Shown piece after piece: positions 1-39,046 of a stretch of 44,034 nucleotides of DNA (positions are counted from its first letter, which is position 1; each line of letters begins with the position of its first letter). The position numbers and the translations under genes are program-made. Source of the DNA: Bacteroidota bacterium. Its GTDB lineage: Bacteria; Bacteroidota; Bacteroidia; Chitinophagales; CAIODY01. The stretch is taken from NCBI GenBank assembly GCA_041192505.1, contig JBEEMV010000082.1, positions 1 through 44,034 on the forward strand, in the 5' to 3' direction. A model generated the notes under the pieces. That model worked only from the letters and a program-made list of their open reading frames with translations. It was not told the DNA's origin and ran no database searches.

Positions 1-3000
1 TGATGCTGTGCATGGATTATCATTGGCAGGTGTTGTACATATTTTTTTACCCAATTGTAATACCACAGTATCCATTGCATTCAAATTAGTAAATTTAGCA
101 TTAGCCGTATTCACGTTCGAAATTGTTGCTACATTCCACGATGCATATAAACCACTATAATATTCGCCAGTTAAAATTGATGTAGTTACAGAGGCATCAA
201 AATCTGAATTTACATAATATACTTGTGCTGTATAATTAGCCGCCACAAACGAGTTGATAGGTTTTATTTGCCAATAACGATTAATTGTTTTTAATGGATC
301 AAAACAAGAAGTATTTATTTTTGAATAATCATTTATAATTGATGAAACAACTATATCACCAGCAGTAGTAACGGCATTAGATGAAATTTTTACAGGTGCA
401 TAAGCAGTTGCATCGCCTACCGGAAAATCAACATTTACTAAAGTACCAACGGGTATAGTACGACGCAACGAACCATGAATATAATTAGTAGCATTATGAC
501 CACTAATATTTCCACTTGTACCAATAATTTTATTTCCTGCAATAATTTTTCCAGAGATAAAATTAATGAAGCCTGTAACCTGAAGGTTATCTGCAAGCGT
601 TAATCCTGCGGCATTATTTACCACCAATGAGTTGATTGTTGTAGGCAATGCATCACCAGTATTTTGAGCTACTGAACTATAATAAATGTAATTTGCTGAT
701 GTACTAAAATTTCTTACACAAGTTTGAATATTGCCTAATGATGTAGATTTGGTAATACCATCGGCTGATGAAATTTTTAATGTAGCACCATTTTGTAAAT
801 CGAATACCGATTTAAAATTTCCTGAAGATGCAATCGTATAACTACCACAATCTAAAGTTGAATTTGCGGCAACAGTAAGCGTTCCAAATAAATTTATATT
901 GCCCAATAATGTTACAGTTGCGCCGCTGTTAATAGTAATGTTACCGTATGTTCCACCCGATAAAGTTTGATTTGAATTGATAACCAAATCTGCATATGGC
1001 GTTAATGATAAACCTCTGAAAATTGTATTGGTAGGTGCTGTTGCTACAATTACACCAACAGTAGTAATGGCAGAACCTGATGAACTAATATTTGAACTAT
1101 ATGCTGCTGCATCAACAAATTTATGAATTTTATTTCCAGCTGCTGTACCTACGGTAACATACAACTCAATACCAGTACACGATTCAAAACCTGCGATGCC
1201 TGTACAACCACCTGTTGCAGTTATTGAACCTCTGCTTGTCCAAGTAGTTCCATTATACGAATATTTTAATAATCCATTAGTTTGATCAGCAATATAAACT
1301 AAATCAACACCAGCAATATTTGGGTCTTCGTCAAAAAATACTGAGCTATATACATTGCCCGACGGAACAGAAACTAAAGATGATAATGTTTGTGATGTAG
1401 TAGTTGGTAACCCTGTTCCAACTTTACTCAACGCTGTTGATGTAGATACAATTAATTGTCCGTTTACAATACTTGCAGCACGAACATTAGATGATGATAA
1501 TGCTACTCCATTTGAATTACTACCTACTGTGGTATAAATAATTCCGTTAGGACCAGTAGCCCAAATATCAGTACCATTGGTAGTTACAGCACCTCTAATA
1601 TTATTACCGCTAATGGCTGTAGGAATAATTGTTGAAGTATTTATTTCACCATAATTATCAACTATACCCACTACTCTACCTACTGTTGATGTTGCAACCG
1701 ACGTTGTACCTACTGTTGCATTATATCCTGCTAATGCCAAGTATTGATGATTTGGCGAAAAGCTTAATGCACCTTCTGAGCCTGCACTGCCACTATTTGT
1801 TAATGCATAATTTGTTCCTAATGTAGATGATGGCATTGGGCGACTTCTAACAATTGTGCCATTCGTTGAATATTCATCAATGGTAACTTGCGATGCACTG
1901 CTACTTAATGCAGTACCTGTTCCCAAGCGCAATACAGCCAAGTTGCCCGGTATAAATGGAATGCCTGTAATTCTAACATTTATTAATGAACGTGGGCTTT
2001 CGCAACCGTTGGTTGTTTCAGATACCCAATATTGTGAAGATGGATTTCCTGTTGCTGTTGTTGATGGCGTTGGTGCTGTTGAGCTTCCTATTCCACCTGT
2101 TGAAACTGTATACCAAGTTAAATTTGAACCTGTTGCTGTTAATGTTGATGCCGAAGTACCTTGTGTGTAAACCACTGGTGTAGTTACTGCTGGTGCAGTT
2201 GGCACACTATATACATTTACATTTATTTGTGCTAAAGGGCTTTCACAACCATTTACAGTTTGCGATACATAATAAGAAACTGCTGGTGCGCCAATTATTA
2301 AAGCAGATGGTGTTGGTGCTGTTGCACTTCCCGTTCCACCCGTTGAAACTGTGTACCATTGTATATTTGAACCCGTTGCACTTAAAGCTGATGGTGTAGA
2401 ATTTTGGCAAAGATTAATAGGTGTTGATGATGATGGTACAGATGGATAACCATACACATTTACATCAATTTGTTTGCGATTACTTTCGCAACCTGTAGTA
2501 GTATTTGTTTGTGAAACAAAATACGAAACCGCAGGAATGCCTGTGGTAGCTGTGTTTGGTGTTGGTGCTGTTGCACTTCCTATTCCTCCTATTGATGAAG
2601 TGTACCATAATAAATTAGTACCAGTGGCTGAAAGTACTGATGCTACTACATTTTGACAATAGTTAATCGGCGATGTTGATGTTGGAATAGTTGGTAATGC
2701 ATTTACAACTACTGCTAATAATGCTCGTGGACTTTCGCAGCCATTTACCGTTTGACTTACATAATTATTGATAGTAGTTGCTGAAGAAGTAACTGGTGTT
2801 GGTGCAGTTGCATTGCTTGTTCCATTTGTTGAAACCGTGTACCAAAGCAAGTTTGAACCCGTTGCTGTTAATTGTGTAGCTGCATCATTCAAACAATAAG
2901 TTACTGGTGTAGTTACAATTGGTGTTGTTGGTATAGAATAAACATTCACATCAATTTGTGCTGCCGGACTTTCAGGGCAACCGCCAATTGTTTGTGTTAC

Positions 3001-6000
3001 CCAATACGAAATTGTTGGTGTTCCTATTGAAGTGGTTGATGGTGTTGGAGCAGTTGAACTACCACCTGTGCCTGTGGTTGAAGTAGTGTACCATAATAAA
3101 TTTACACCTGTTGCTGTTAATTGTGATGCTGTAACTCCTTGACAAAATCCTACTGGTGTTGTTACACTTGGTGCTGTTGGTGCTGCAATTACAGTTACAT
3201 CTAATTGTGCACGTTGGCTTTCGCAAGTACCATTATTTTGGGTAACCCAATAACTTGTAGTGCCTGCTGATATTGCAGTTGGTGTAGGTGCTGTAGAGCT
3301 ACCTGTTCCATTTACTGCCACTGTATACCACATCAAACTTGTGCCTATTGCTGTTAATTGTGATGTAGTTGCATTCTGACAATAGTTTACATTTGAAACC
3401 GTTGGTGAATTAGGTGATGCATTAATATTTACCACAATTTCACTTCTATTACTTGTACAACCACTTGCTGTTTGTGTTACAAAATAACTTCCGATTGGTG
3501 TTCCTGCTGTAGCAGTTGAAGGCGTTGGTGCAGTTGATGAACTTGAAGTTGAATTAATAGCGGTATACCATAATTTGTTTGTTCCTGTTGCTGTTAATGC
3601 AGCAATTGTGTTATATTGACAATAAGTTGCTGGCGATGAAACCGTTGGTGCTGCTGCATTTCCTTCGCCAATTTGTAAATCGAAAGTGGAAGTGGTATTA
3701 ATTCCTGTTATCGAAATTGATGAAGTGGTAAAATTTGTTGTAGCTAATGCATAACTCCACGAGCTGCCAAACATAGCAGCAATAACGTTTGCAGCCGTTA
3801 TGCTTCCATCCACATCTGATGATTGATAATTTACAGTTGCATTATAAATAGCTGGCAACGGAGCTGATGGAAAACTGATAGACCAATATCTATTCACACT
3901 TTTTGAAGCAGTAATACATGATGATGAAAGGTTTGCTCTATCGCCCGAAGTGCTTGCTACTTGTATTGTTCCAGCTGTTGTAACCGATGGGAAATTTAAA
4001 GTAATAGAAGAATATTTTGCATTGCTGCCTACTTCAAAAGTTATATTTACGTTCGTTCCTGTTGCAATTATTTTTTGTAAATTTCCATTCACAAAGCTTG
4101 TAGTGCTTGCTCCGCTTACACTTCCGCCGCTTGCAATTGTCATTACATTTGATGAACCTGTAGTTAAAACACCCGAAGTTAAATTTAATGTAGTAGCTGA
4201 AGTGCTTGCTGTAAGCGTAACACCAGCCGAATTACTAATTGTTAAAGTAGTAATTGTTGATGGCAAACCATCGCCTGTAACTTGTGCCGATGAACCATTA
4301 TAAATATAAATAGCCGATGAAGAATAATTTCTTACACAAGTTTGCACACTACCTGTTGCACTCGAAGCTGTGATACCTGCTGTGTTTGCAGTTTTTAATG
4401 TAGCACCGTTTTGCAAATCGAAAGTGCTTTTACCAATACCATTGCTCAATATTTTAAATGTGCTGCAATCAATTGTACCACCATTTTGAATGGTAATATT
4501 ATCAGCATAAATATCGCCAGTTAATGTAAGTGTACCACCCGAAACTGTAATGTTGTTATAGATTCCAGAAGCGTTGGTATTGCCTGATGCTACTGTTAAA
4601 TTGCCTTGTGTAGGCGCCCACGAAATACCTTTAAATGAACTTGTAGCAGATGAAGTAGCAACTAAAGTTCCTACTGTTGTAATATCCAAACCGCTGCTTG
4701 TAATATTTGCATTGTAAGCCGCAGCATCTACAAATTTGTATACTTTATTTGCTACTGATCCATTACCCCAAACGCAGTATAGTTCAATTTGATCATTACA
4801 ATTTATTTTACCAATTAAACTACCAATACCAGCAGCAGGAGCAGTTCCGGCAGCTACCACAGAACCTCTGGCTGTCCAAGTAGTACCATTGTAAGAATAT
4901 TTAGTGATGCCCGAAGTTAAATCAGCAATGTATAATAAATCGTTTCCTGATACAGTTGCATCTCTATCAAAGAAAATAAAATCATATCCATTTGTACCAG
5001 CAGTTGGCAAGCCCGAAGGCGTAGTAATTGTTTGACCTGAAGTTATTGGTAATCCAGTACCAACTGTTGAAGGAGCAAAAACACCTGAACCAGCATTTAC
5101 CCATAATTGATTTGCTACAATATTGATAGCTCTGCAATTAGTAGATGTTGTTGAAAGTTGAGTACCAGCAGCTACGTTAGCAGTGGTGCCACCTGGAGCC
5201 GAAAATGGAATTACTCTAACGCCACCACCTGTACCTGCACCTACACCCCAAATATAATTTCCATCAGTAATACCACCTCTAAAATTATTACCACTAAATC
5301 CATTTGATGTATTAAATCCTGATCTTGTATCAATAGTTCCTACTGCATCTAAAATTCCTACTACACGAGTTACCGTTGTAGATGCACTGCTTGAAACACC
5401 AGAAGTATTTACAGCTGCATCATAACCACCACAAATTAAATATTTTGTATCGGGCGATAAAGTAATATGCCCATCAGATGTTGAAGAACCTGACAAAACT
5501 AATCTTAAATTATTACCACTCACAGTAGTTGGCAATGAACGATTAGATACTAATGATGTACCACTAGTTGAGTATTCATCCATATAATATTTAGCACCAT
5601 TTGAAGCTGTTGTTAAACCACTTTGATCGCATCTTCCTACCACAATACTTCCAGCTGTAAATGCTGTAAAACCACTAGTTGGCAATGCTGTTACATCAGT
5701 TGTTCCTGTACTCCAAGTAGTACCATTTCTTGTAAATATTTTAAACGAATATGTTGTTCCGTTTGTTAATCCTATAATAGTTTGTGGCGATGTAGTTCCT
5801 TTATAAACCACATATCCATTTCCTAATGATGTACCCAATGTATAAGCAAGATTTGCTGTATAACTATTTCCTATTGGTACGCCATTGTTAGTTGCAGGTG
5901 CAACTACTATCATCACTTCATCATAACATCCTGTTGGGTTGCTCCATGATACTGAAGCCGAAGCTGACAAGGGAGTTGTTGAAACCGATGAAGCATTGTT

Positions 6001-8385
6001 AACAGTAATAGCAGTAATGGTTTGAGCACCACCTGCTGTAAACGAACCCGATGGCGTTGCACTAACAAATGAAAAATCAGACAGTGTACTTGCATTTACA
6101 TTTATAGTAGCATTTGGTGTTGCTGCGCAAATTAAATCAGTAGTTACAAATAAATAATTTGTACCAATTGCAAAGGTTTGATTTAAACTTCCAAAAGTTT
6201 GAGCGCCTGTACCCAATGCGCTGGTTAATGTTCCTAATAATGTGGCAGTATTCGAATTAAAAGTTGATGATGATTGATACCATAATTTTAAATTCGCTAA
6301 ATCAGAAGCCGAATAAGTTCCTGCTAATGTGAAAGATGCTGAACTTAATGTAGCAGCTACTGTAGATACTGTTACATTAGTTCTATACAAAATATTATTA
6401 GTTGTATTTTGGTTGATAGGTGCAGCAGCAATACTTCCATTAGATAAAACAATTATAGGTACTAATGCTGGCGTTGAAAAAGTTGATGATGCTATCCAAC
6501 TACTTTGATTTGAACTACAATTTGAACGAACATATAAAGTATAGGTAGTACTTGCATTTAATGTAGATATAGAAACAGAAGTTAATGAAGTATTTCCGCT
6601 TGCATCTAATCCTGTTGAGCCCGAACCAGCGGCGCCACTACTTCTTACTTCATAATCATAACCACTTGCAGGAGCTGATGATGCAGCCGACCATGAAATA
6701 TTTGCTGCTGTGGCAGATGTTGCTGTGCCTGATGGAGATGAAGGAGCATTACATGTAGCAGCAATAATATCTGCAGTTAATCCTGTTGGTTGAGTTAATA
6801 AATAGCTTGAGCTATTTGTGCCACCTAAAGTTAAATTAGCTGATACCGATATTCCAGTTCCTACGGCTGCAGATGCAAATGTACCACCACCCGAAACAGT
6901 TAATGCATCACCATTTACAGCACCAACAACTGAAGCACCTGTAATGGTTGCAGTTGTATTTCCATCGTATGATTTATTTTGTGCTGCTGCACCTGTTGTT
7001 GAAACTGATAAAGTTGAAACCGTACTTGAAATAGTTGCCACATTTACCGAAGTTGCTCCTGAACTTGATAAAACTATATTACCCGAATATGGCGACCCTG
7101 CTACTGTTGATGTTGCTTTTAATCTTACATAAACTGTAGTTGATGAAATAGTGCCCGATGAACCTACTGTAACAGTTGAAGTATAAGTACCACCAATAGT
7201 TAAACAAACTTCATAGCCTGTAGGTGGTGTTACTAAAATTCCTGCTGTCATGTTTACACCCGATACCGAAAAACTTGTTGGAGATGATGATGCAGTACCA
7301 TAAGTAGTATTTACTGCACTTAAAGTTCCAGTAGTTGAAATAGTTGGCGTAAGTGTAATGGGAGCAAATGCAATTCCTTTTACAGTAGTACCTGCTGCTG
7401 ATGTATATAATGTTATATTATTGGCAGTTGTGATATTTATGGTTGAATTATAACCAGCAGCATCTGTTAATCTAACAACACTATTTGCAGCCGTTGCACC
7501 TGTACCCGATGTTACATATAAATAAGATCCAGTTCCGTTCCATTTTGCAATCATTCCAAAACCACCAATTGTGGTTGTGTAACTTCCGTTGCTTACCCAC
7601 GAACCACTTACCAATGAGTATTTATAAATAATTCCTGCTGTAGCTGATGTACCTATAACCATATACAATATATCATAAGTAGTTCCATTCGAACCTGATG
7701 AAACCATATAAAAATCTAAAGGCGCTGTAATAGTTGGCGATGTACCAATGCTACCAGGCAATGCAGTAAATGCAGTTGCTGTAGCAGATGAATAAGTTCC
7801 AACAGGATTTGTAGCGGCTGATGTTAAAGCATATACAGTCCCACCAAATGATTTCAATGCTCTTAAATTTGTTGAAACACTTGCTGTTGTTCCACTATTA
7901 GTATACAATCCACCTTGGTCGCCTATGTAAAATGTAGAATTATTGGTAGTTGTTGCACTTCTAGTTTGGTTGCCCGATGCACCCGTATAAGTTGTTGCCA
8001 AATTGAAAGTACCAGCACCATTGTAAGTACCAATTCCTCTTGTAGTAATAGTATTAATATTCGCACTTGTACCATTGGTTTGACCTCCAGTAAAAGTTAA
8101 CAAACTACCATCGTTGCTATTCGACAAATAGGCAGTTGAAGTTGCACTACCCGAAAATCGTAATGCAATTGCTGAAGTTGTTCCGTCAATCGAATGAGTA
8201 GTTAAAGCAGATTGTCCAGCTGAAGTAGTGTTTAGTTCAACAATACTTCCTGTGGTATTATTGCCCGATGAAGATGCAGCAACAAACACAGCTAAGTTAC
8301 CATTGGTAAACGATTGTGCTCGTACTATGCTTATTGAAAGCAATAGCATTAATACACTTGTTAAAATATAACGGGTTGATTTCAT
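1..8385 (-). CDS. Giant secreted cell-surface repeat protein, partial (at least 2795 codons; the 3' end lies beyond the left window edge)
   Basis: A minus-strand ATG at 8385-8383 opens MKSTRYILTSVLMLLLSISIVRAQ, which looks like a signal peptide. No stop codons were found where I hand-translated this frame (1-180, 2160-2400, 5641-5700). No competing long ORF exists in any frame across 1-8385, and the track lists no in-frame minus fragments. This fits one ORF lacking an in-window stop. Contents include a YDG-like segment (KSYDGNTTATITG, ~6770-7000), an FN3-like segment (CNAPSSPSG..ISWSA..YDYEVR, ~6480-6757), seven Ig-like repeats and three copies of a propeller-like module. Confidence 0.85.
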   Translation of the reverse strand, partial: MKSTRYILTSVLMLLLSISIVRAQSFTNGNLAVFVAASSSGNNTTGSIVELNTTSAGQSALTTHSIDGTTSAIALRFSGSATSTAYLSNSNDGSLLTFTGGQTNGTSANINTITTRGIGTYNGAGTFNLATTYTGASGNQTRSATTTNNSTFYIGDQGGLYTNSGTTASVSTNLRALKSFGGTVYALTSAATNPVGTYSSATATAFTALPGSIGTSPTITAPLDFYMVSSGSNGTTYDILYMVIGTSATAGIIYKYSLVSGSWVSNGSYTTTIGGFGMIAKWNGTGSYLYVTSGTGATAANSVVRLTDAAGYNSTINITTANNITLYTSAAGTTVKGIAFAPITLTPTISTTGTLSAVNTTYGTASSSPTSFSVSGVNMTAGILVTPPTGYEVCLTIGGTYTSTVTVGSSGTISSTTVYVRLKATSTVAGSPYSGNIVLSSSGATSVNVATISSTVSTLSVSTTGAAAQNKSYDGNTTATITGASVVGAVNGDALTVSGGGTFASAAVGTGISVSANLTLGGTNSSSYLLTQPTGLTADIIAATCNAPSSPSGTATSATAANISWSAASSAPASGYDYEVRSSGAAGSGSTGLDASGNTSLTSVSISTLNASTTYTLYVRSNCSSNQSSWIASSTFSTPALVPIIVLSNGSIAAAPINQNTTNNILYRTNVTVSTVAATLSSASFTLAGTYSASDLANLKLWYQSSSTFNSNTATLLGTLTSALGTGAQTFGSLNQTFAIGTNYLFVTTDLICAATPNATINVNASTLSDFSFVSATPSGSFTAGGAQTITAITVNNASSVSTTPLSASASVSWSNPTGCYDEVMIVVAPATNNGVPIGNSYTANLAYTLGTSLGNGYVVYKGTTSPQTIIGLTNGTTYSFKIFTRNGTTWSTGTTDVTALPTSGFTAFTAGSIVVGRCDQSGLTTASNGAKYYMDEYSTSGTSLVSNRSLPTTVSGNNLRLVLSGSSTSDGHITLSPDTKYLICGGYDAAVNTSGVSSSASTTVTRVVGILDAVGTIDTRSGFNTSNGFSGNNFRGGITDGNYIWGVGAGTGGGVRVIPFSAPGGTTANVAAGTQLSTTSTNCRAINIVANQLWVNAGSGVFAPSTVGTGLPITSGQTITTPSGLPTAGTNGYDFIFFDRDATVSGNDLLYIADLTSGITKYSYNGTTWTARGSVVAAGTAPAAGIGSLIGKINCNDQIELYCVWGNGSVANKVYKFVDAAAYNANITSSGLDITTVGTLVATSSATSSFKGISWAPTQGNLTVASGNTNASGIYNNITVSGGTLTLTGDIYADNITIQNGGTIDCSTFKILSNGIGKSTFDLQNGATLKTANTAGITASSATGSVQTCVRNYSSSAIYIYNGSSAQVTGDGLPSTITTLTISNSAGVTLTASTSATTLNLTSGVLTTGSSNVMTIASGGSVSGASTTSFVNGNLQKIIATGTNVNITFEVGSNAKYSSITLNFPSVTTAGTIQVASTSGDRANLSSSCITASKSVNRYWSISFPSAPLPAIYNATVNYQSSDVDGSITAANVIAAMFGSSWSYALATTNFTTSSISITGINTTSTFDLQIGEGNAAAPTVSSPATYCQYNTIAALTATGTNKLWYTAINSTSSSSTAPTPSTATAGTPIGSYFVTQTASGCTSNRSEIVVNINASPNSPTVSNVNYCQNATTSQLTAIGTSLMWYTVAVNGTGSSTAPTPTAISAGTTSYWVTQNNGTCESQRAQLDVTVIAAPTAPSVTTPVGFCQGVTASQLTATGVNLLWYTTSTTGTGGSSTAPTPSTTSIGTPTISYWVTQTIGGCPESPAAQIDVNVYSIPTTPIVTTPVTYCLNDAATQLTATGSNLLWYTVSTNGTSNATAPTPVTSSATTINNYVSQTVNGCESPRALLAVVVNALPTIPTSTSPINYCQNVVASVLSATGTNLLWYTSSIGGIGSATAPTPNTATTGIPAVSYFVSQTNTTTGCESNRKQIDVNVYGYPSVPSSSTPINLCQNSTPSALSATGSNIQWYTVSTGGTGSATAPTPSALIIGAPAVSYYVSQTVNGCESPLAQINVNVYSVPTAPAVTTPVVYTQGTSASTLTATGSNLTWYTVSTGGIGSSTAPTPSTTATGNPSSQYWVSETTNGCESPRSLINVRITGIPFIPGNLAVLRLGTGTALSSSASQVTIDEYSTNGTIVRSRPMPSSTLGTNYALTNSGSAGSEGALSFSPNHQYLALAGYNATVGTTSVATSTVGRVVGIVDNYGEINTSTIIPTAISGNNIRGAVTTNGTDIWATGPNGIIYTTVGSNSNGVALSSSNVRAASIVNGQLIVSTSTALSKVGTGLPTTTSQTLSSLVSVPSGNVYSSVFFDEDPNIAGVDLVYIADQTNGLLKYSYNGTTWTSRGSITATGGCTGIAGFESCTGIELYVTVGTAAGNKIHKFVDAAAYSSNISSSGSAITTVGVIVATAPTNTIFRGLSLTPYADLVINSNQTLSGGTYGNITINSGATVTLLGNINLFGTLTVAANSTLDCGSYTIASSGNFKSVFDLQNGATLKISSADGITKSTSLGNIQTCVRNFSTSANYIYYSSVAQNTGDALPTTINSLVVNNAAGLTLADNLQVTGFINFISGKIIAGNKIIGTSGNISGHNATNYIHGSLRRTIPVGTLVNVDFPVGDATAYAPVKISSNAVTTAGDIVVSSIINDYSKINTSCFDPLKTINRYWQIKPINSFVAANYTAQVYYVNSDFDASVTTSILTGEYYSGLYASWNVATISNVNTANAKFTNLNAMDTVVLQLGKKICTTPANDNPCTAS
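1962..3650 (-). repeat. Seven tandem ~80-aa (~240-nt) Ig-like coding repeats inside the giant ORF
   Basis: Hand translation gives a recurring pattern: P..P....P..YCQ......L.ATG.NL.WYT....G.GS.TAPTP......G....Y.VSQT..GCES.R..I.V.V. One example is SALSATGSNIQWYTVSTGGTGSATAPTPSALIIGAPAVSYYVSQTVNGCESPLAQINVNVYSVP at ~2170-2400. The pattern resembles the CHU_C-associated Ig-like domain family of Bacteroidota adhesins. Confidence 0.8.
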
Positions 8386-8590
8386 GATAATTGAACTTAA
8401 GTTAATTTTTGTGATGCAAAACTCAATCAACTACATGAACCTATTCTTACCAACCCATGAAGCATTTGTAAATAAAACATTCCCTAAATGTTTCCTTTTT
8501 TTAACCAATTCTGCATTTTGTTAACTTTAAAGAAACCATTAAATAATTTTTGATTAACGCAAAAAAAAACGGGTACACCTACCCTGAAAA

Positions 8591-20069: not shown

Positions 20070-20081
20070 GGGGGGGGGGGG
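20070..20081 (+). repeat. Homopolymeric G12 tract between the signal-peptide start codon and the body of the following ORF
   Basis: Counted directly: ...catggttctG GGGGGGGGGG Gtactc... gives 12 G. It is the only G/C homopolymer longer than 5 nt that I noticed in the window. Confidence 0.95.
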
Positions 20082-20125: not shown

Positions 20126-22501
20126 ATGCGCTTTGAACAAGAGCCGCCCATACCCCAAGCCTACTATGTGCAGAAACTGCCGCAGCCAACAACCGAAGGA
20201 CAAAATATTATTTTTAGTGTTACCTATTTAGCCGAACCCAATTTGCCCGAAAAATTATACCTTAACCCAATAGGCAACCAAAATTTAATTTTGCACGATG
20301 ATGGCAAATACCCCGATTTGGTAGCTGGTGATTTAAAATACAGTACTTTAATGACAGAAGATATACAAACATTTAAAGACCAAATACACCGCTTAGAAGA
20401 TAAAATAGATGCCGATGGCGGTGTAATAAGCTTTACTGGACATGATGGACACTTTACAAAAGCAGGTGAGTTGGCTCATTTTGATTTTGTGAAATTTGAA
20501 GATAATGAAGAAACGCAAGTGGCTGCAAGACTTATTGATGCAACGCAATGCATAGATGAAATCAAAAAAGAAAAATCATTATTTATTACTGATATCAGTG
20601 TGGTAGAAGATCCTGCAAGAACTTACAATTTCAAAACAGGTTTTGGGAATAAACAAGGAGCTTGGACTTTTGGGCATTTATTGGGCAACATTATTAATAA
20701 CCCCAATAATGTAAATTCATTTATTGATAATTGGGTAGAAATGTTTCTTACAACTCAAACTCAATCTCAAACTGGCGATCAAGCATATATGAGAGAAGGT
20801 GTAGAACATTTTTTAATGATTCCATGGATGCAACTATGTTATAGCGACCCTAATTGGATTGTTGCACCCAATGTATCACCTACAAAGATTGATTATGATA
20901 TAATGTTAAACTTATCTGGTTCAGATTGGCATTATTATGTTAGCCAAGTTCCTCAAAATATTTTACTCGAAAATGCACCATTTAAGTTAACCACTATTGT
21001 TAACAGAATGGATTTAAGAGGTAACGAAGCTTTTTCATATGGAGGCTTTCACATGGCTAATGCTGGTGAAACAAGATTTATCTTCACTTTAATAAATACA
21101 GATTTTACAACTTATAGAAATAATAGTCAGTCTCCTCAACTTGATTTACCTACTCATGTAAATGCAGTACCTGGAAGTAGCACAATTCCTTTTGATTGGA
21201 AAGGGCTTAATGTAATCTTCGAATATTCAAATCCTCAACCAAACCTAGAAATGCTTCAAGATTTTGCAGCGGAATGGGTTGATTTATCAAGCTCCTTAGT
21301 CCCTCCATTTGGAACAAATAGTTTACCAAATGCACCCAATTTTAATGATTATTTACAACATATTACTGATCAAGTTATAAAACCGAATGCCATGCCCAAT
21401 AAGCCTAATGGCAGTGCAATAAATAGAATAAGAACCAATGAGAAAATATTTGATAAACTAAATAGTCAAATCGGATTTTTAACTGGCTCTCAGTGGGAAG
21501 ATATGAAATGGCAATTCAGGCAATTCGAATTAAATAACAATGGAATGTTTGAAATGGCACCAGTAACTAATGTACCTTATTTTGGTGTAAATGATGCCGA
21601 ACATAGCCCTAACGAGGCAACTGGTATATTATCAAATCATTTTAATCAAACTCGTAGTCAAACTTTCATAAATTGGGCTTCACAAAATACTACAAGGATT
21701 GAAAGTGGTAATTTTTTGATTCCTAAAAATTTAACAGCACTAACAGGAGATAATTATAGTGAATTAATTAATTATTTTGTGTTTGATAGAGCATACTATA
21801 CTACTGATTATAGCCCGATAATAAATAATGCTAAATTAGTTCGTCATGAAATTTCTTTGAATACTTGCCAAGGTTGTCATGGGGGAGAAACAAAGACCTT
21901 ATTTACTATGGTTGCTCCAATGGTTTATGGTCAAGCTGCCAACTATTGGTCAAATAATCCAATACTAAATGCTTCATATGTTGATGATATTATTGACGAA
22001 AGATTTTATCCCGATCCCAATAATTCAGGAATTGCTCAAAATACTGGAAAAACTTTTGAACATTATTTGTTAAGTACTGGTTCTGCTCAAAGTGAGAATT
22101 ATCAGATAAAGCATTTTTCAAAAATTATTCAAACTGTTTCTCCATTTTTAACAGGTCGAAGATACTCTGGACAAAACACATCTAGTGCAACATGGGACGA
22201 TGATGAAAATGACCCATTACATCCAGATAATGACGTACAAACTTTTCCTAAGCTTCCAGATAATTTAATGTCGGGGTTATTTTGGGTTAACGACCCAGAT
22301 AATCAAAGCCCTATTGGAGCTACAAATAATGCTATTGGAGGTTCGCCATATAACCATAATACAAAATATGGCTATAATGATTTAGAAATGAGAAAAAAGG
22401 ATATTTGTAGTTTCCTTACCAATGAAAATGCTAGTTCGAGTAATATAATGAGAATGGTAAATCGTATTAAGAAAATTCCTTTGCCATTAGGCTCTCATTA
22501 A
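20126..22501 (+). CDS. Protein of unknown family (791 aa as listed). The probable true product starts at ATG 20032 with a signal peptide and needs a -1/+2 change in the G12 tract
   Basis: The ORF is open upstream to a TGA at 20033 and has no signal peptide from ATG 20126. ATG 20032 encodes MKKRNFLYLFMVLGGGG, but in a different frame. Internal motifs are NRMDLRGN..AGETRFIFTL, NRIRTNEKIF..WQFRQFELN and NTCQGCHGGETKTLFTMV. There is no T9SS CTD. Confidence 0.75.
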   Translation: MRFEQEPPIPQAYYVQKLPQPTTEGQNIIFSVTYLAEPNLPEKLYLNPIGNQNLILHDDGKYPDLVAGDLKYSTLMTEDIQTFKDQIHRLEDKIDADGGVISFTGHDGHFTKAGELAHFDFVKFEDNEETQVAARLIDATQCIDEIKKEKSLFITDISVVEDPARTYNFKTGFGNKQGAWTFGHLLGNIINNPNNVNSFIDNWVEMFLTTQTQSQTGDQAYMREGVEHFLMIPWMQLCYSDPNWIVAPNVSPTKIDYDIMLNLSGSDWHYYVSQVPQNILLENAPFKLTTIVNRMDLRGNEAFSYGGFHMANAGETRFIFTLINTDFTTYRNNSQSPQLDLPTHVNAVPGSSTIPFDWKGLNVIFEYSNPQPNLEMLQDFAAEWVDLSSSLVPPFGTNSLPNAPNFNDYLQHITDQVIKPNAMPNKPNGSAINRIRTNEKIFDKLNSQIGFLTGSQWEDMKWQFRQFELNNNGMFEMAPVTNVPYFGVNDAEHSPNEATGILSNHFNQTRSQTFINWASQNTTRIESGNFLIPKNLTALTGDNYSELINYFVFDRAYYTTDYSPIINNAKLVRHEISLNTCQGCHGGETKTLFTMVAPMVYGQAANYWSNNPILNASYVDDIIDERFYPDPNNSGIAQNTGKTFEHYLLSTGSAQSENYQIKHFSKIIQTVSPFLTGRRYSGQNTSSATWDDDENDPLHPDNDVQTFPKLPDNLMSGLFWVNDPDNQSPIGATNNAIGGSPYNHNTKYGYNDLEMRKKDICSFLTNENASSSNIMRMVNRIKKIPLPLGSH

Positions 22502-22507
22502 TTTACT

Positions 22508-24283
22508 ATGAAAATAACATTTTTTGTTTTTTTTCTTACTGTAACTTTTACATTAAGAGCACAAAACTATCATGCTAAAAACATTATCATGAGTAGTAAA
22601 TGTGATTATTATAATGTTGCTTCAATAACTACCGATAGCTATAACAACACCTATATTGGAGGTTTTTTTAATGGGACTTATTCATTGGGGGGATATACTT
22701 TGAAAAGTAACACTCAAAGCTCTTTAAATAATACTCTATTTATAGCTAAGATTGATAGTTCTGATGTTGTACAGTGGATAAAAATAATTACTGAGATTCA
22801 ATCCCCATATTATCAACGTGTAAAAATTCAATGTGATAAAAAGAATAACCTTTTACTTGCATTTAATTTTGCAGACAGTATGAATATATTAGGTCATAAT
22901 ATTATTAGTATTGGCAGTTCAGATGCTTTATTATTAAAGCTTGATTCATTGGGGGATTATTTATGGCATTTTACAATTAATGGGCTTTATGGAGAAAGTA
23001 TAGGGCTAGATGAAATTGGTATAATGCCAAATAATGATATTGTAATTTCTGGAGGATTTGGAGGTTATTCTGGCAGCCCAAATCCTATTGCAACGACTGA
23101 TTTTGGAGGTACTATATTAACTACAAAAGGAGCAGATGGGTATTTGGCTAGATACACTGAAACAAGTTCATTGATTTGGGTCAGAAGAGGAGGGACAAAT
23201 AACTTAATTGACGGTTATGCTGGTTCATTAATTGACATAAACCAGAATTTATATTCCTTAATTAGTTTAGACCCTAGCTATAATATTTATTTTGATTCAG
23301 CTTATCACTATACTTTTCCACAACAAGGATACACTGCTTCTGCAATTGTCAAATACAATAGTGTAGGCACATTGAAATGGGTAAAAGGAATCTACACCCC
23401 AAACTTCCCCGACATTGCAGGATTTGAAGGAATGTGTATTCTGAAAAATCTACAAGTTGTAGTTTTCGGAAGTTATAATAGCCTAAATTCTGTATTACTG
23501 GAAGGTCATTCCTCTTTTCCACCCAATATTACAGGAACAGGAGGCACAAATGAATATCTTAGTTTTTTAGTATGCTATGATTCATTAGGCAATGTATTAT
23601 GGGCTAAAAATCCACATAAATTAATCAGTTCAACCGAACAGCCTATTGGAGTGGTGGGTAGCAAAACTAATTCTGATTTTTATTTTGTTTCTTATTTCGA
23701 TGGTTCATCTATTATTTCGGGTACTGATACTGTATATGGTACAGGTTATCAAAATGTATTAATTGAATGTATGGATAGTATGGGTAATAAAAAATGGCAT
23801 AAAATCATTAAAGGTTTTCCTGGTGCTAATGCTCGTGATATTGCTATTAATGATAATAATGAAATTATTATTGTAGGCAATACATCAAGCAGCACACTAC
23901 AATGCGATGCTAAAAAAGTAAACATAAGCAGCACACCAGCCATGTATATTTTAAAGCTTGCCCCCGGCAATGTAAACTGGAATGATACTTTAAATGGTTT
24001 TGAAGATGTGGTGGTAAGTAAAGAGCAGTTGGTGGTTTATCCGAATCCAGCACAGCAGTCAATAGTCATCAGTCATCAGTCATTAGTAAATACAATAGTG
24101 GTAACGGATGTGTTGGGTAGAGTGTGCTCTATTCCCCCTTTTGAAAGGTTGCAAATCCCGAAGGAATCGGGAGGGTTAGGGGGATTTGAATTAAATATTT
24201 CAACTCTTTCAAAGGGTATTTATTTCATCAAAGCAACCGACGTAAACGGCAATCAACTAAATGGAAAATTTGTAAAACAATAA
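22508..24283 (+). CDS. Secreted beta-propeller (SBBP-like repeat) protein with a T9SS type-A CTD
   Basis: The signal peptide is MKITFFVFFLTVTFTLRAQ. Six blade-like motifs are present (DALLLKLDSLGDYLWH, DGYLARYTETSSLIWV, SAIVKYNSVGTLKWV, LSFLVCYDSLGNVLWA, NVLIECMDSMGNKKWH, LFIAKIDSSDVVQWI). The C-terminus is VVYPNPAQQ...GIYFIKATDVNGNQLNGKFVKQ. The start lies 6 nt after the upstream stop. Confidence 0.8.
   Translation: MKITFFVFFLTVTFTLRAQNYHAKNIIMSSKCDYYNVASITTDSYNNTYIGGFFNGTYSLGGYTLKSNTQSSLNNTLFIAKIDSSDVVQWIKIITEIQSPYYQRVKIQCDKKNNLLLAFNFADSMNILGHNIISIGSSDALLLKLDSLGDYLWHFTINGLYGESIGLDEIGIMPNNDIVISGGFGGYSGSPNPIATTDFGGTILTTKGADGYLARYTETSSLIWVRRGGTNNLIDGYAGSLIDINQNLYSLISLDPSYNIYFDSAYHYTFPQQGYTASAIVKYNSVGTLKWVKGIYTPNFPDIAGFEGMCILKNLQVVVFGSYNSLNSVLLEGHSSFPPNITGTGGTNEYLSFLVCYDSLGNVLWAKNPHKLISSTEQPIGVVGSKTNSDFYFVSYFDGSSIISGTDTVYGTGYQNVLIECMDSMGNKKWHKIIKGFPGANARDIAINDNNEIIIVGNTSSSTLQCDAKKVNISSTPAMYILKLAPGNVNWNDTLNGFEDVVVSKEQLVVYPNPAQQSIVISHQSLVNTIVVTDVLGRVCSIPPFERLQIPKESGGLGGFELNISTLSKGIYFIKATDVNGNQLNGKFVKQ
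24134..24183 (+). repeat. 50-nt GC-rich hairpin-containing element embedded in frame in the CTD (copy A)
   Basis: The sequence is CCCCCTTTTGAAAGGTTGCAAATCCCGAAGGAATCGGGAGGGTTAGGGGG, which is 28/50 G+C. An internal hairpin pairs TCCCGA with TCGGGA (24156-24172). It is 49/50 identical to the reverse complement of 37377-37426. Confidence 0.9.
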
Positions 24284-24290
24284 AACAAAC

Positions 24291-24322
24291 CTCACCCCAA
24301 CCCTCTCCAAAGGAGAGGGAGC
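24291..24322 (+). repeat. GC-rich REP-like palindromic element, possibly a terminator
   Basis: The sequence is CTCACCCCAACCCTCTCC-aaa-GGAGAGGGAGC, with an 8-bp stem at 24301-24308/24312-24319. It lies 8 nt after the stop at 24283. No immediate T-run follows. Confidence 0.55.
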
Positions 24323-24363
24323 AAAAACAAATAATTTTTTAAAAACAATTAAATTTTATAATC

Positions 24364-25248
24364 ATGCAAAAATATATTTTAACAGCAGCGTTTATAGTGG
24401 CTTCATTTGGTTTGGCTAATAGCCAAAATGTATCAACAGCAAATAAATTTGATATAAAACTACACCCCGAAAAGCCCGAATTAACTACACAAAACAAATT
24501 TTCGGCAGCTTGTTTTCAAATAGCCGATGTGGTATATACCGTTATAGAAAATGCAAAACCAAATACCGTATTAGAATTTTATAGCACCATTCATGGTGGT
24601 AAATTAGTAGCCAATTGTACTACCGATAAATTGGGTTTTGCTCAAAAAGTATTTTCGGCTAAAGCAGTGCCTGGCTTTGCTATCAACAAACCTTCTGCCG
24701 ATAGCAGAGAAGGATTTGTAGAGCATTTTATCGAAAAAGAATTTGTGTTAGAAAAATTTGAAGCACAGCGCAATGGCAATACTATTTCATTAAATTGGAA
24801 TGCCAATTCATCAGCCAAAAACACTATTACTTTTGAAATTTTAAAAAGTACGGATGGTAAAAATTATTCGGTAATTAATACCCAACAAGCTAATTCATCA
24901 GAGGGATTGAGTACTTATACTTTTACTGAAAATTTCAATGAATCAAGTAGTTATAAATTACGAATTATAAAAAACAATTCTATAGCTCGTTATACATCCG
25001 AGCCTTTAAATGCCGATGCTAATAAATCGTTTAAAGTTTATCCAACGGTTTCAAGCACCAATATTCATATTGATGCATCTGATAATACAATTGAACCAAC
25101 GCCATTTTACATCATAAATGTTTCAGGCGAAATATTAAAAAATGGACTATTGGATAAAGCACAAAATGAAGTAGCTATAAACGAATTTGTGGCAGGAATT
25201 TATTTTGTTCAAATTGGAACTAAAACACAAAAATTTATAAAGGAATAG
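24364..25248 (+). CDS. Secreted protein with an FN3-like middle domain and a T9SS type-A CTD
   Basis: The signal peptide is MQKYILTAAFIVASFGLANSQ. The middle segment is FEAQRNGNTISLNWNANSS..ITFEILKSTDGKNYSVI. The C-terminus is FKVYPTVSSTNIHI...INEFVAGIYFVQIGTKTQKFIKE. Confidence 0.75.
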   Translation: MQKYILTAAFIVASFGLANSQNVSTANKFDIKLHPEKPELTTQNKFSAACFQIADVVYTVIENAKPNTVLEFYSTIHGGKLVANCTTDKLGFAQKVFSAKAVPGFAINKPSADSREGFVEHFIEKEFVLEKFEAQRNGNTISLNWNANSSAKNTITFEILKSTDGKNYSVINTQQANSSEGLSTYTFTENFNESSSYKLRIIKNNSIARYTSEPLNADANKSFKVYPTVSSTNIHIDASDNTIEPTPFYIINVSGEILKNGLLDKAQNEVAINEFVAGIYFVQIGTKTQKFIKE

Positions 25249-37276: not shown

Positions 37277-39046
37277 TCAGTTTTTAATAAACTTCTTTCT
37301 ATATGTTTTGCCAGCTATATCGGTAAGTTGTAAAAAATAAATTCCGTTTGAAAGAGTTGAAATATTTAATTCTAATCCCCCTAACCCTCCCGATTCCTTC
37401 GGGATTTGCAACCTTTGAAAAGGGGGAACAGGGCACACTATTCCTAAAATGTTGGTTATTTCAATTGTGTTTTCTAATAACTTATAACCAGTAACTATTA
37501 ATTTATCTCCACACGGATTTGGATAAATAGATATTTCATTTTTTTCAGTTTCAACTATTCCTAATGAAATTGTATCACGAATAAATTCGCCCTGATTTTC
37601 ATCGGCACCAATATCAACCTTACCATTAAAAATACGGCTTTGATTTTCGAAATCAGTTTCGTTTGCTATTATTGTAAATGCAGCATTACCAGCATCTACA
37701 GCCTTACTTGTATTGAATAAATGAAAATCATTTTTATTTTCATCTACAAATAATGGGTCAACAAAAATGCTGTTTGCATCCTGATTGCTTACCATTTTAT
37801 AATAACCAAATCCTGTAGTATAATTTCCATCCCAATTAAAAATAATAGATGCTGGGTTTAAAAATGAGGAACAAAATAAATTGTAATCCATCACATTGTT
37901 TTGCCAACCAGCGCCATAAAACCACGAGTAGCCAATCATGTTTTGATTGTTGGCATAAAAAATATTATGAGTGATAGAGCTACTATCAAATGGAAATAAA
38001 ACAATTTCGCCAGCACTGGTTTTCAAACTATTATTTTGGTACAAAGTATTGTGATGAAGATTAGCATATCTAATTCGAGCAGTAGAATTTGTGTAATTAT
38101 AAATGCCGATGGAAATGCCTTGCAAATAATTTTTGTAAATTAAATTTTCTCGAATAGTAATATAATCTGTTCGTGCATAATTTGAATAACCCGAAATATT
38201 AATTCCAAAATCGCAATTATAAATTCTGTTTTTTTCAATCATGCAATTTCTTGCACCACTAATTACAATGCCCTGCTGATAATTGCCAGGTGTTTTATTA
38301 TACACATCATGAATTATATTATTGCTGATATAAATATTTCGAGCGTAATCATATATCCATTTTTTTGATGTGCTATCGCTGCCCACTAATGCAATGCCCG
38401 AGTTTGCAATATGATGAATGGTATTGTTTGTAATGCTGCAATCATGCACATTTCCAGCTATTCCAATAGCTTGTGTCATGCTGAAAATTGAGTTTCCGAA
38501 ATTGCAATTTGTAATCGTAATATCATGCACACCATTGGCTGTTGTATCATTGCCATACAATGCAATACCTGTTGAATGTTTATTAATTAAATGATTAAAC
38601 GTGCAATTTTTAAATTCGATATTGGATGAAATACTACCCACAATAATGGCTGGCTGCCAGTTGTAAGCCGATGATGAATCGGAAATTGCAAAATGAATAC
38701 CTTGAATTTTAAAATAAGATGGACCGTAAAAAGTTAAAACACCCCAACCATTTATGCCACCGCCATCAATAATTACAGAATCATTTTGATGATTTTTTAT
38801 AGTGATAAAATTATTGGGTAAACCTGTAACAAGCGGAATTATTTTTTCATTATAAGTGCCTGCTAAAATTTCGATTGTGCTACCAGCAGCCACAGTAGTT
38901 GCCGCTTTCTTTACCGTTTTCCAAGCTGATGTAATGGATGTTCCGTTATTCGAATCATTGCCCGAAGTGCTTACGTAGTAAGTAGTTTGAGCAAAAATGT
39001 TTGTTGCAAAAATCAGTAAAATAAAAACAGTTAAAATATATCTCAT
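37277..39046 (-). CDS. Right-handed parallel beta-helix repeat protein with a T9SS type-A CTD
   Basis: The signal peptide is MRYILTVFILLIFATNIFAQ. Repeated N.I..N/I.IS.N turns are present (ITNCNFGN, ITNNTIHH, ISNNIIHD, IEKNRIYN, IRENLIYKN). The C-terminus is ISIYPNPCGDKL...GIYFLQLTDIAGKTYRKKFIKN. Confidence 0.8.
   Translation of the reverse strand: MRYILTVFILLIFATNIFAQTTYYVSTSGNDSNNGTSITSAWKTVKKAATTVAAGSTIEILAGTYNEKIIPLVTGLPNNFITIKNHQNDSVIIDGGGINGWGVLTFYGPSYFKIQGIHFAISDSSSAYNWQPAIIVGSISSNIEFKNCTFNHLINKHSTGIALYGNDTTANGVHDITITNCNFGNSIFSMTQAIGIAGNVHDCSITNNTIHHIANSGIALVGSDSTSKKWIYDYARNIYISNNIIHDVYNKTPGNYQQGIVISGARNCMIEKNRIYNCDFGINISGYSNYARTDYITIRENLIYKNYLQGISIGIYNYTNSTARIRYANLHHNTLYQNNSLKTSAGEIVLFPFDSSSITHNIFYANNQNMIGYSWFYGAGWQNNVMDYNLFCSSFLNPASIIFNWDGNYTTGFGYYKMVSNQDANSIFVDPLFVDENKNDFHLFNTSKAVDAGNAAFTIIANETDFENQSRIFNGKVDIGADENQGEFIRDTISLGIVETEKNEISIYPNPCGDKLIVTGYKLLENTIEITNILGIVCPVPPFQRLQIPKESGGLGGLELNISTLSNGIYFLQLTDIAGKTYRKKFIKN
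37377..37426 (-). repeat. 50-nt GC-rich hairpin-containing element embedded in frame in the CTD (copy B)
   Basis: The reverse complement reads CCCCCTTTTCAAAGGTTGCAAATCCCGAAGGAATCGGGAGGGTTAGGGGG. It differs from copy A at one base (G to C, giving E to Q). Confidence 0.9.

Follow-up and report, generated by a model that had tools for sequence, protein, structure and literature searches.

The stretch of DNA analysed here (hereafter the window; 44,034 nt, contig JBEEMV010000082.1 of the Bacteroidota assembly GCA_041192505.1) carries two genes, A and B, whose 3' ends share an almost identical 50-nt palindromic element. Gene A (22508–24283, forward strand) encodes a 591-aa putative cargo protein of the T9SS (type IX secretion system) in which Pfam recognizes nothing except the C-terminal sorting domain (CTD) at residues 510–587 (PF18962, E = 9.8e-10; nucleotides 24035–24283). 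Gene B (37277–39046, reverse strand) encodes, according to its translation and Pfam matches, a 589-aa right-handed beta-helix cargo protein that ends in a CTD of the same kind (PF18962 at residues 507–587, E = 1e-9; nucleotides 37277–37528). In both proteins the Por_Secre_tail (PF18962) match lies at the extreme C-terminus and scores 39 bits against a cut-off of 27. The two proteins are otherwise unrelated, the CTD being their sole common part. Judging from sequence, both CTDs appear to be type-A T9SS sorting domains, for which export and cleavage by PorU are predicted.

The 50-mer, CCCCCTTTTGAAAGGTTGCAAATCCCGAAGGAATCGGGAGGGTTAGGGGG, lies at 24134–24183 (forward strand) in the CTD of gene A and is read there in frame as PPFERLQIPKESGGLGG. 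Its second copy, at 37377–37426 on the reverse strand, is read as PPFQRLQIPKESGGLGG in gene B and is identical at 49 of 50 positions, the mismatch being a G to C change at position 10; no match was found in 100 shuffled controls (0/100). The initial annotation had described both of these copies, and each indeed falls within a PF18962 match. Its figures for base composition and for the inner hairpin at 24156–24172 were reproduced on recomputation: the 50-mer has a G+C content of 28/50 (56%) against ~29–40% across the window, and a 6-bp stem (24156–24161 paired with 24167–24172) encloses the loop AGGAA. In the JGI metagenome 3300042989 the window lies within a 62.5-kb contig, and an identical gene A is present in two other assemblies (JGI samples from the source population are 3300042989, 3300047555 and 3300079163); with the same sequence in three independent metagenome assemblies, the element is therefore no assembly artefact.

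This element, initially taken as a single 50-nt unit, is real but composite. It consists of a 26-nt hairpin module, here called the C5/G5 module (CCCCCTTTnnAAAGGGGG-TTA-GGGGG or, in the fuller form of its consensus, CCCCCTTTnnAAAGGGGG-TTA-GGGGG-ATT), and of an exact 24-nt hairpin nested within it. In copy A the outer module is split into 24134–24148 (CCCCCTTTTGAAAGG) and 24173–24183 (GGGTTAGGGGG) by the nested 24-mer TTGCAAATCCCGAAGGAATCGGGA at 24149–24172 (forward strand), which encodes LQIPKESG; in copy B the 24-mer occupies 37388–37411. The two parts are told apart by a short form, CCCCCTTT(TG/AC)AAAGGGGGTTAGGGGG, in which the hairpin CCCCCTTT/AAAGGGGG is followed by TTAGGGGGATT. It is found in three loci (L001, L021 and L130), where CTD site and flanks match those in the window. 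The DNA of a CTD from the same metagenome as the window (P0001) has it as CCCCCTTTTGAAAGGGGGTTAGGGGG, with identical site and flanks. The window 50-mer equals this 26-nt form plus an exact 24-nt insertion between AAAGG and GGG, which is the whole difference between the long and the short form. The inserted 24 nt form a second hairpin in the 3' half of the outer module's stem and break the primary stem. Variants that keep the stem of the nested hairpin and change its loops occur in L126 (a CTD, in another frame) and in L118 (5' of a DUF559 gene, see below), and the nested 24-mer was seen solely within the C5/G5 module (two copies in the window, one in L126 and two in L118). Metagenome scans for the inner hairpin alone, with GCAAATCCCGAAGGAATCGGGA and then with AATCCCGAANNAATCGGGAGGG, gave 0 matches in a collection that evidently lacks the source samples. 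On its left side the repeat consensus reaches ~9–12 nt beyond CCCCC (approximately TGTATTATT) in both non-CTD and CTD copies, with the reading C-I-I or C-S-I in the latter. In gene A this left extension (GTGTGCTCTATT, 24122–24133, forward strand, encoding V-C-S-I) resembles the 5' flanks in the non-CTD loci L131, L132 and L118 as well as those of other CTD copies. A census of GC islands and C5/G5 runs revealed no further copies of the module, intergenic or other, in the 44-kb window.

An AlphaFold model of the CTD of protein A, built with a 13-sequence alignment, is a seven-stranded immunoglobulin-like (Ig-like) beta-sandwich (pLDDT 84, pTM 0.73). In Foldseek it matches Ig-like sandwiches, among them the translocon-bound RemA CTD of the T9SS (8gl6_D and 8gl8_D, TMt 0.68–0.69). 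The element corresponds to model residues 39–55, an excursion between strands four and five in which model confidence is lowest, and is thus predicted to occupy a surface-exposed loop of an otherwise confident beta-sandwich. It begins five residues past the conserved Gly of the L-beta3-beta4 loop. The motifs D-x-L-G and GIYF...K-F-x-K, which are invariant or nearly so in the CTD alignment, are both intact. The essential parts of a CTD have been found to be limited to L-beta3-beta4, with its Gly, and the C-terminus, and an 11-residue insertion in another CTD loop left export unaffected (PMC11285876).

The two window copies share more than the element itself. The initial annotation had marked the span 24121–24225, which turned out to be exactly the block of high identity between gene A (forward strand) and gene B (37335–37439, reverse strand). 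These 105 nt comprise the element together with CTD coding sequence on either side of it (13 nt upstream, 42 nt downstream) and are identical at 99 of 105 positions, compared with 51/87 (59%) in the upstream part of the CTD and 27/54 (50%) in its downstream part. Five of the six differences alter an amino acid. The copies have the rare nested 24-mer, the orientation and the reading frame in common, and no direct repeat at their flanks indicates a target-site duplication. The 42-nt stretch that follows the element on its right is specific to CTDs and lies outside the module elsewhere; ATT(A/T)GAATTAAATATTTCAACTC was considered as a further part of the mobile module and rejected, as the non-CTD copies do not have it.

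Protein B clusters at 90% identity with five full-length relatives. One of them (P0245) carries the long form and resembles B throughout, with 97% identity in the mature part, 93% in the CTD centre from YPNP to GIYF and 100% in the CTD tail. In three others the element is absent, and the respective values are 95%, 29% and 86% (P0243), 90%, 31% and 73% (P0244) and 88%, 25% and 68% (P0247); the fifth (P0246, 573 aa) shares the element-free CTD of P0244. Because these orthologues are alike in the mature part but have different, element-free CTD centres, the CTD centre is a mosaic segment that has been replaced among relatives. The element appears to have reached gene B within such a replaced segment, and the two window copies seem to be linked by transfer of the 105-nt CTD segment, not by two independent insertions.

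A profile of 15 CTDs, which itself held element-bearing members, retrieved 1448 relatives, and among the best 120 of these the C5/G5 module encoded the beta4–beta5 turn in at least 21 CTDs of this freshwater Bacteroidota lineage, four of which also had a second hairpin family. This second family, CTCAGCATGAC-N10-GTCATGCTGAG GAACGAAGCATC or its 3' half (in L005, L006, P0002, P0003, P0005, P0006, P0012, P0023, P0026 and others), was found alone in at least 16 of the 120, where it reads MVRQAHHD...GHAEERSIS or its half MLRNEAS (CTCAGCATGAC...GTCATGCTGAG). The CTDs P0001 and P0003 are near-identical and differ solely in the element that fills the loop. Dispersal of the second hairpin outside CTD loops was not found in the DNA examined, with 0 matches in viral contigs; its putative status as a repeat is suggested by its palindrome and by its recurrence in at least 16 CTDs. 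A third family (SPLERAGVR) occupies the loop in 3 of the 120 CTDs (P0078, P0082 and P0085) and is the reverse complement of an intergenic hairpin at 24290–24322, which is found in three copies within 8 kb in a Chitinophaga metagenome-assembled genome (MAG; L045). In the window, this GC-rich hairpin (CCTCACCCCAACCCTCTCCAAAGGAGAGGGAGC, forward strand) lies 7 nt past the stop codon of gene A, and its reverse complement reads PSPLERVGVR. A single MAG, recognized by grouping proteins under the locus tag prefix RI955_, encodes long-form, short-form, second-family and element-free CTDs.

Aligning CTDs with and without the element, as the initial annotation had proposed, modifies its claim that the element lengthens the loop. 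From D(V/L)LG to GIYF, element-free CTDs have 24 residues, short-form CTDs also 24 and long-form CTDs 32. Therefore, the nested 24 nt alone lengthen the loop, whereas the outer module replaces an equal length of CTD sequence. The module is translated in CTDs in three frame configurations: CCC CCT TTT GAA AGG GGG TTA GGG GGA gives PPFERGLGG, a 25-nt variant gives PPxKGGKGD and a shifted form gives SPLQRGLGG. The nested hairpin, read as LQIPKESG in the window, is read as FESRSNRE in L126. Codon-by-codon comparison of eight CTD genes showed Pro-Pro encoded by CCC CCT in 56 of 56 pairwise comparisons, against agreement at 116 of 207 synonymous third positions of the conserved flanking residues. 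The module uses the rare codons CCC CCT and GGG GGA throughout these CTDs; in the window, CCC accounts for 10% of Pro codons and GGG for 7% of Gly codons.

Outside CTDs the module is widespread. A scan of GTDB (one genome per species) with the pattern CCCCCTTTNNAAAGG-N(0-30)-GGNTTAGGGGG returned at least 119 loci from Cyanobacteria, Bacteroidota, Dehalococcoidia, Desulfobacterales, Geobacteraceae, Methylococcaceae, Hydrogenophilales, Gracilibacteria and other groups. Among the matches listed, nearly all module copies have the 26–28-nt form, and 79 of 125 lie outside any open frame of at least 100 codons, as called by a stop-to-stop heuristic. The 26-nt module thus looks like a dispersed repeat that crosses phyla and is mostly intergenic. 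In unrelated bacteria it is also found in frame in other proteins, namely L019 (in the opposite orientation, NPPNPLSKGG), L030 and L106; reading of their translations suggests a putative histidine ammonia-lyase, a photolyase-like protein and YbeY, respectively. Viral contigs yielded three matches to the module, all from one source, so that there is no sign of phage carriage. The proposal of the initial annotation that the element is repeat-derived palindromic DNA is borne out by these data, with synonymous sites kept, rare codons used, several frames read and the module mostly intergenic in many phyla.

Among the matches listed, 15 of 119 loci contain a gene of the DUF559 family, and in 8 of these 15 the module lies 29–79 nt from that gene. 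The layout is [hairpin-TTA-GGGGG-ATT] gene [AAT-CCCCC-TAA-hairpin], i.e. the gene has inverted flanks. To lift the bias of a sample collected by motif, the DUF559 protein was used as a query, which gave 1151 homologues (PF04480). Three independent sites chosen through protein homology alone are represented by five loci (L131, L132 and L133–135), and both flanks are present in 5 of 5 cases, with direct repeats of the 3' unit on either side of the cassette; some DUF559 loci also carry direct repeats of ~35–60 nt. DUF559 genes bracketed by inverted modules were seen in L118, L131, L132, L133–135, L034, L037, L039, L060, L068, L103 and L112, which represent several phyla. In 20 of 120 DUF559 homologues the reading frame runs into the motif at a terminus, in 18 of them at the C-terminus (NPPxPPLKRG...). 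The module-bracketed gene, whose product would be a Vsr-like PD-(D/E)XK endonuclease, looks like a small selfish cassette. A literature search found no publication tying DUF559 to these repeats and no description of such a cassette. No DUF559 gene was found in the window or in the CTD loci. In a Bacteroidales MAG (L037, ~7080–7260), tandem degenerate modules (...DSPFIKDKSNSQDSPFKKN...NSPFSKGVRGI) adjoin a DUF559 open reading frame (ORF) on its upstream side and are in the same frame.

The cassette and the CTD form of the module occur together in the Bacteroidota MAG JBEANU01, which has a short-form CTD (L021) and a DUF559 cassette with the long form (L118, DUF559 region at 3895–4860, reverse strand). 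Here the 5' flank of the DUF559 gene is CCCCCTTTATGAAAGGTTGTAAATCCCGAAAAAATCGGGAGGGTAAGGGGGATT, which is ~45/50 identical to the window element and has the same nested stem with a different loop; a degenerate second copy lies ~200 nt upstream and an inverted partner follows the gene. Between this cassette and an intact T9SS gene, and upstream of the latter, there is an orphan 44-codon ORF (3895–4029, reverse strand) in which a short-form module is in frame with the 3' half of a CTD (MYYSPLKRGLGGFLVDVSESPQGIYFIKATDTKGNVWNGKFVKE; ...GIYFIKATDTKGNVWNGKFVKE). The CTD of the intact gene is free of the element and has a near-identical ending. The orphan may have been left behind when a cassette inserted into a CTD, or it may represent a duplicated half of a CTD.

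Taken together, the 50-mer is probably selfish or repetitive DNA that has become CTD coding sequence and has been spread among CTDs by segmental gene conversion. Its outer 26 nt would derive from the family of C5/G5 modules that flank DUF559 cassettes. One module arm would have come into the beta4–beta5 turn of a type-A CTD in a bacterium ancestral to this freshwater Bacteroidota lineage, in a frame that reads Pro-Pro...Gly-x-Gly-Gly and is suited to a turn, and the nested 24-nt hairpin would have been acquired by that arm or have arrived with it. Subsequent spread among CTD paralogues would have proceeded by segmental gene conversion or recombination, the window pair representing one event with a tract of ~105 nt. 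Such an insert would be tolerated because the CTD is a cleavable export tag with few essential motifs and the loop is not essential. In CTDs, the element is most likely tolerated selfish DNA.

Several points weigh against this interpretation. In the 44-kb window the C5/G5 module is found twice, each time in a CTD and never between genes, all CTD copies seen share one orientation and one turn, and two further hairpin-repeat families fill the same loop. This enrichment in the loop exceeds what random insertion plus tolerance would give and could reflect targeting or selection. The loop fractions are biased by the element-bearing CTDs in the seed profile. The division of the module copies at the at least 119 loci of the scan into coding and intergenic ones is heuristic. 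The combination of invariant stems and variable loops fits recent spread but also fits selection on nucleic-acid structure. Finally, neutrality is assumed, and we infer which way sequence passed between cassette arm and CTD.

Descent of an ordinary conserved CTD sequence is scarcely credible as an explanation: position, orientation and a similar peptide are indeed common to many paralogues, but the rare codons are undiverged (56/56 against 56% at neighbouring synonymous sites), an identical module is intergenic in many phyla, and there are orthologues that do not have it. The initial annotation had named the same amino acids encoded by diverged codons as the sign of ordinary CTD sequence, and the codon comparison contradicts this. 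Adaptation at the protein level, in which a long Pro/Gly-rich loop would be selected because it changes how PorV or the translocon recognizes the tag, how PorU cleaves it or how far it is exposed at the surface, would account for the recurrence of the peptide in many CTDs, for ORFs that are intact and identical across three samples and for the predicted exposure of the loop in the model. We consider it very improbable, since the frames give unrelated peptides (LQIPKESG and FESRSNRE, PPFERGLGG and PPxKGGKGD), the amino-acid changes follow the nucleotides of the hairpin loops, synonymous sites are frozen, close orthologues do without the element and five of the six differences between the tracts in A and B change an amino acid.

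A function at the nucleic-acid level is improbable too. The hairpin would serve either to pause or stabilize the messenger RNA (mRNA) ahead of the sorting signal or, as a recombination site in the DNA, to promote the exchange of CTD 3' halves. The invariant stems and variable loops of both hairpins, a 60-nt single-stranded DNA fold of the long form with z = -3.5 (0 of 200 shuffles as stable), the breaks of the CTD mosaics around the element and the orphan module with a CTD 3' half in L118 would all agree with it. The 80-nt RNA fold, by contrast, is no more stable than shuffles (z = -0.53), invariant stems yield no evidence of covariation, and many CTDs of the same subfamily are element-free. 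No terminator-like site (a GC hairpin with a T-run, as in intrinsic terminators) was found in 23800–24500, where promoter matches were at chance level. The Rfam search of the whole window at the gathering threshold found no family, and a permissive search of 24050–24350 returned sub-threshold snoRNA and miRNA noise alone. The RNA-level role considered in the initial annotation is thus left unsupported. The unlikely case of independent targeted insertion, with the module mobilized by the DUF559 endonuclease or another enzyme and homing into the beta4–beta5 region, would make the window copies separate events. It would be consistent with the tight linkage of the module to an endonuclease gene across phyla, with the full cassette in L118 that adjoins a module plus CTD-3'-half remnant, with the three frame configurations and three repeat families in one loop, and with the 12 nt left of CCCCC that also belong to the repeat consensus. 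However, the common tract of the window copies extends 42 nt into CTD-specific coding sequence, and the rare nested 24-mer is common to both; the CTD copies show no target-site duplication, the window has no DUF559 gene, and the B orthologues differ across the whole CTD centre with no clean indel.

The closest precedent appears to be provided by the Rickettsia palindromic elements (RPEs), which, according to the summary of Ogata et al. (2000) in PMC10969869, are ~150 bp long and occur in frame in genes for unrelated proteins. The present element can be viewed as an analogue of RPEs, not as a member: like them, it is a palindromic repeat translated in frame in unrelated proteins (here via the CTDs of A and B) where the fold tolerates it. 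It is set apart from the RPE families by description, with a size of 26–50 nt, another host phylum, the use of one loop of one domain family, probable spread mainly by CTD-to-CTD segment replacement and a link to DUF559 cassettes. REP (repetitive extragenic palindromic) and REPIN elements with their RAYT transposases (PMC3116915) are likewise short, GC-rich, mostly extragenic palindromes that flank a dedicated gene. In our case, however, that gene encodes a DUF559 PD-(D/E)XK protein instead of an HUH Y1 transposase, and both copies in the window lie inside genes. GTAG is missing from the module consensus, and no RAYT was seen, though no systematic RAYT search was made. Precise nesting of one short repeat in another has reportedly been described by Elhai et al. 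in 2008 (a work cited in PMC4390886) for cyanobacterial small dispersed repeats (SDR), units of ~21–27 nt said to interrupt other short repeats by precise insertion. The precise nesting of a 24-mer in a 26-mer looks similar in arrangement and size; the 24-mer differs in being seen inside the C5/G5 module alone and in neither of two metagenome scans as a free-standing unit.

Intragenic MITEs (transposable elements of the miniature inverted-repeat kind), enterobacterial repetitive intergenic consensus (ERIC) and Correia-type elements are small non-autonomous repeats from which in-frame fusions can arise (PMC10969869). The CTD copies differ from MITEs in that they are a single arm (hairpin plus TTAGGGGGATT) with neither two terminal inverted repeats nor a flanking direct repeat. 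The same arms serve as inverted flanks of the DUF559 cassettes, which would be the counterpart of an autonomous partner, although DUF559 is no known transposase. The REP/MITE-like character proposed in the initial annotation thus holds as far as the palindromic repeat is concerned; neither REP nor a complete MITE describes the element, which corresponds to one arm of a DUF559 cassette. The Vsr-like (EDxHD) homing endonucleases, such as I-Bth0305I, are Vsr-fold nucleases of selfish elements (PMC3239194, PMC2677866) and offer a precedent for a DUF559 gene that drives its own spread or local gene conversion. Theirs is a location in introns or inteins, whereas the DUF559 genes here are free-standing between hairpin inverted repeats. 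Natural and engineered insertions in CTD loops have been described in PorU and PorZ (the L-beta5-beta6 hairpin) and in RgpB (712-714:NARGGDGNSVA), where export remained intact (PMC11285876). These are in the beta5–beta6 loop and not repeat-derived, while the present ones are in beta4–beta5. A literature search found nothing that ties T9SS CTDs to repeat insertions. An in-frame repeat has precedent; as far as the literature was searched, its restriction to a single loop of a secretion tag, the mosaicism of the CTDs and the tie to DUF559 are new.

These observations provide a clear case, at the sequence level, of palindromic repeat DNA recruited as coding sequence outside Rickettsia. What is unusual is that it keeps to a single loop of an export tag common to hundreds of cargo genes. 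The CTDs of this lineage are mosaics that swap internal segments, which bears on CTD-based prediction of cargo and on the engineering of display tags, the latter because the beta4–beta5 turn appears to accept 8–17 foreign residues. In addition, a very common and so far unexplained 'PPLxKGG / GLGG' repeat of many phyla is tied to DUF559 genes, giving an orphan endonuclease family a testable role. More speculatively, the C5/G5 modules might be the ends of undescribed selfish DUF559 cassettes that cross phyla, with the CTD loop as a preferred harbour and with endonuclease breaks at the hairpins driving the conversion that reshuffles CTDs. We put this forward as a tentative possibility that could easily prove wrong; if true, a secretion-tag gene family and a selfish element would evolve together.

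Two other features of the window deserve mention. A run of 12 G (20070–20081) lies ~45 nt upstream of the ATG of the ORF 20126–22501, the gene directly upstream of gene A; with the genome at ~33% G+C, it is a candidate for slipped-strand (phase-variable) change. At the left end, positions 1–8430 of the reverse strand form a single open frame of at least 2810 codons that runs off the window and has a raised G+C content (0.37–0.40); it probably encodes a giant surface protein.

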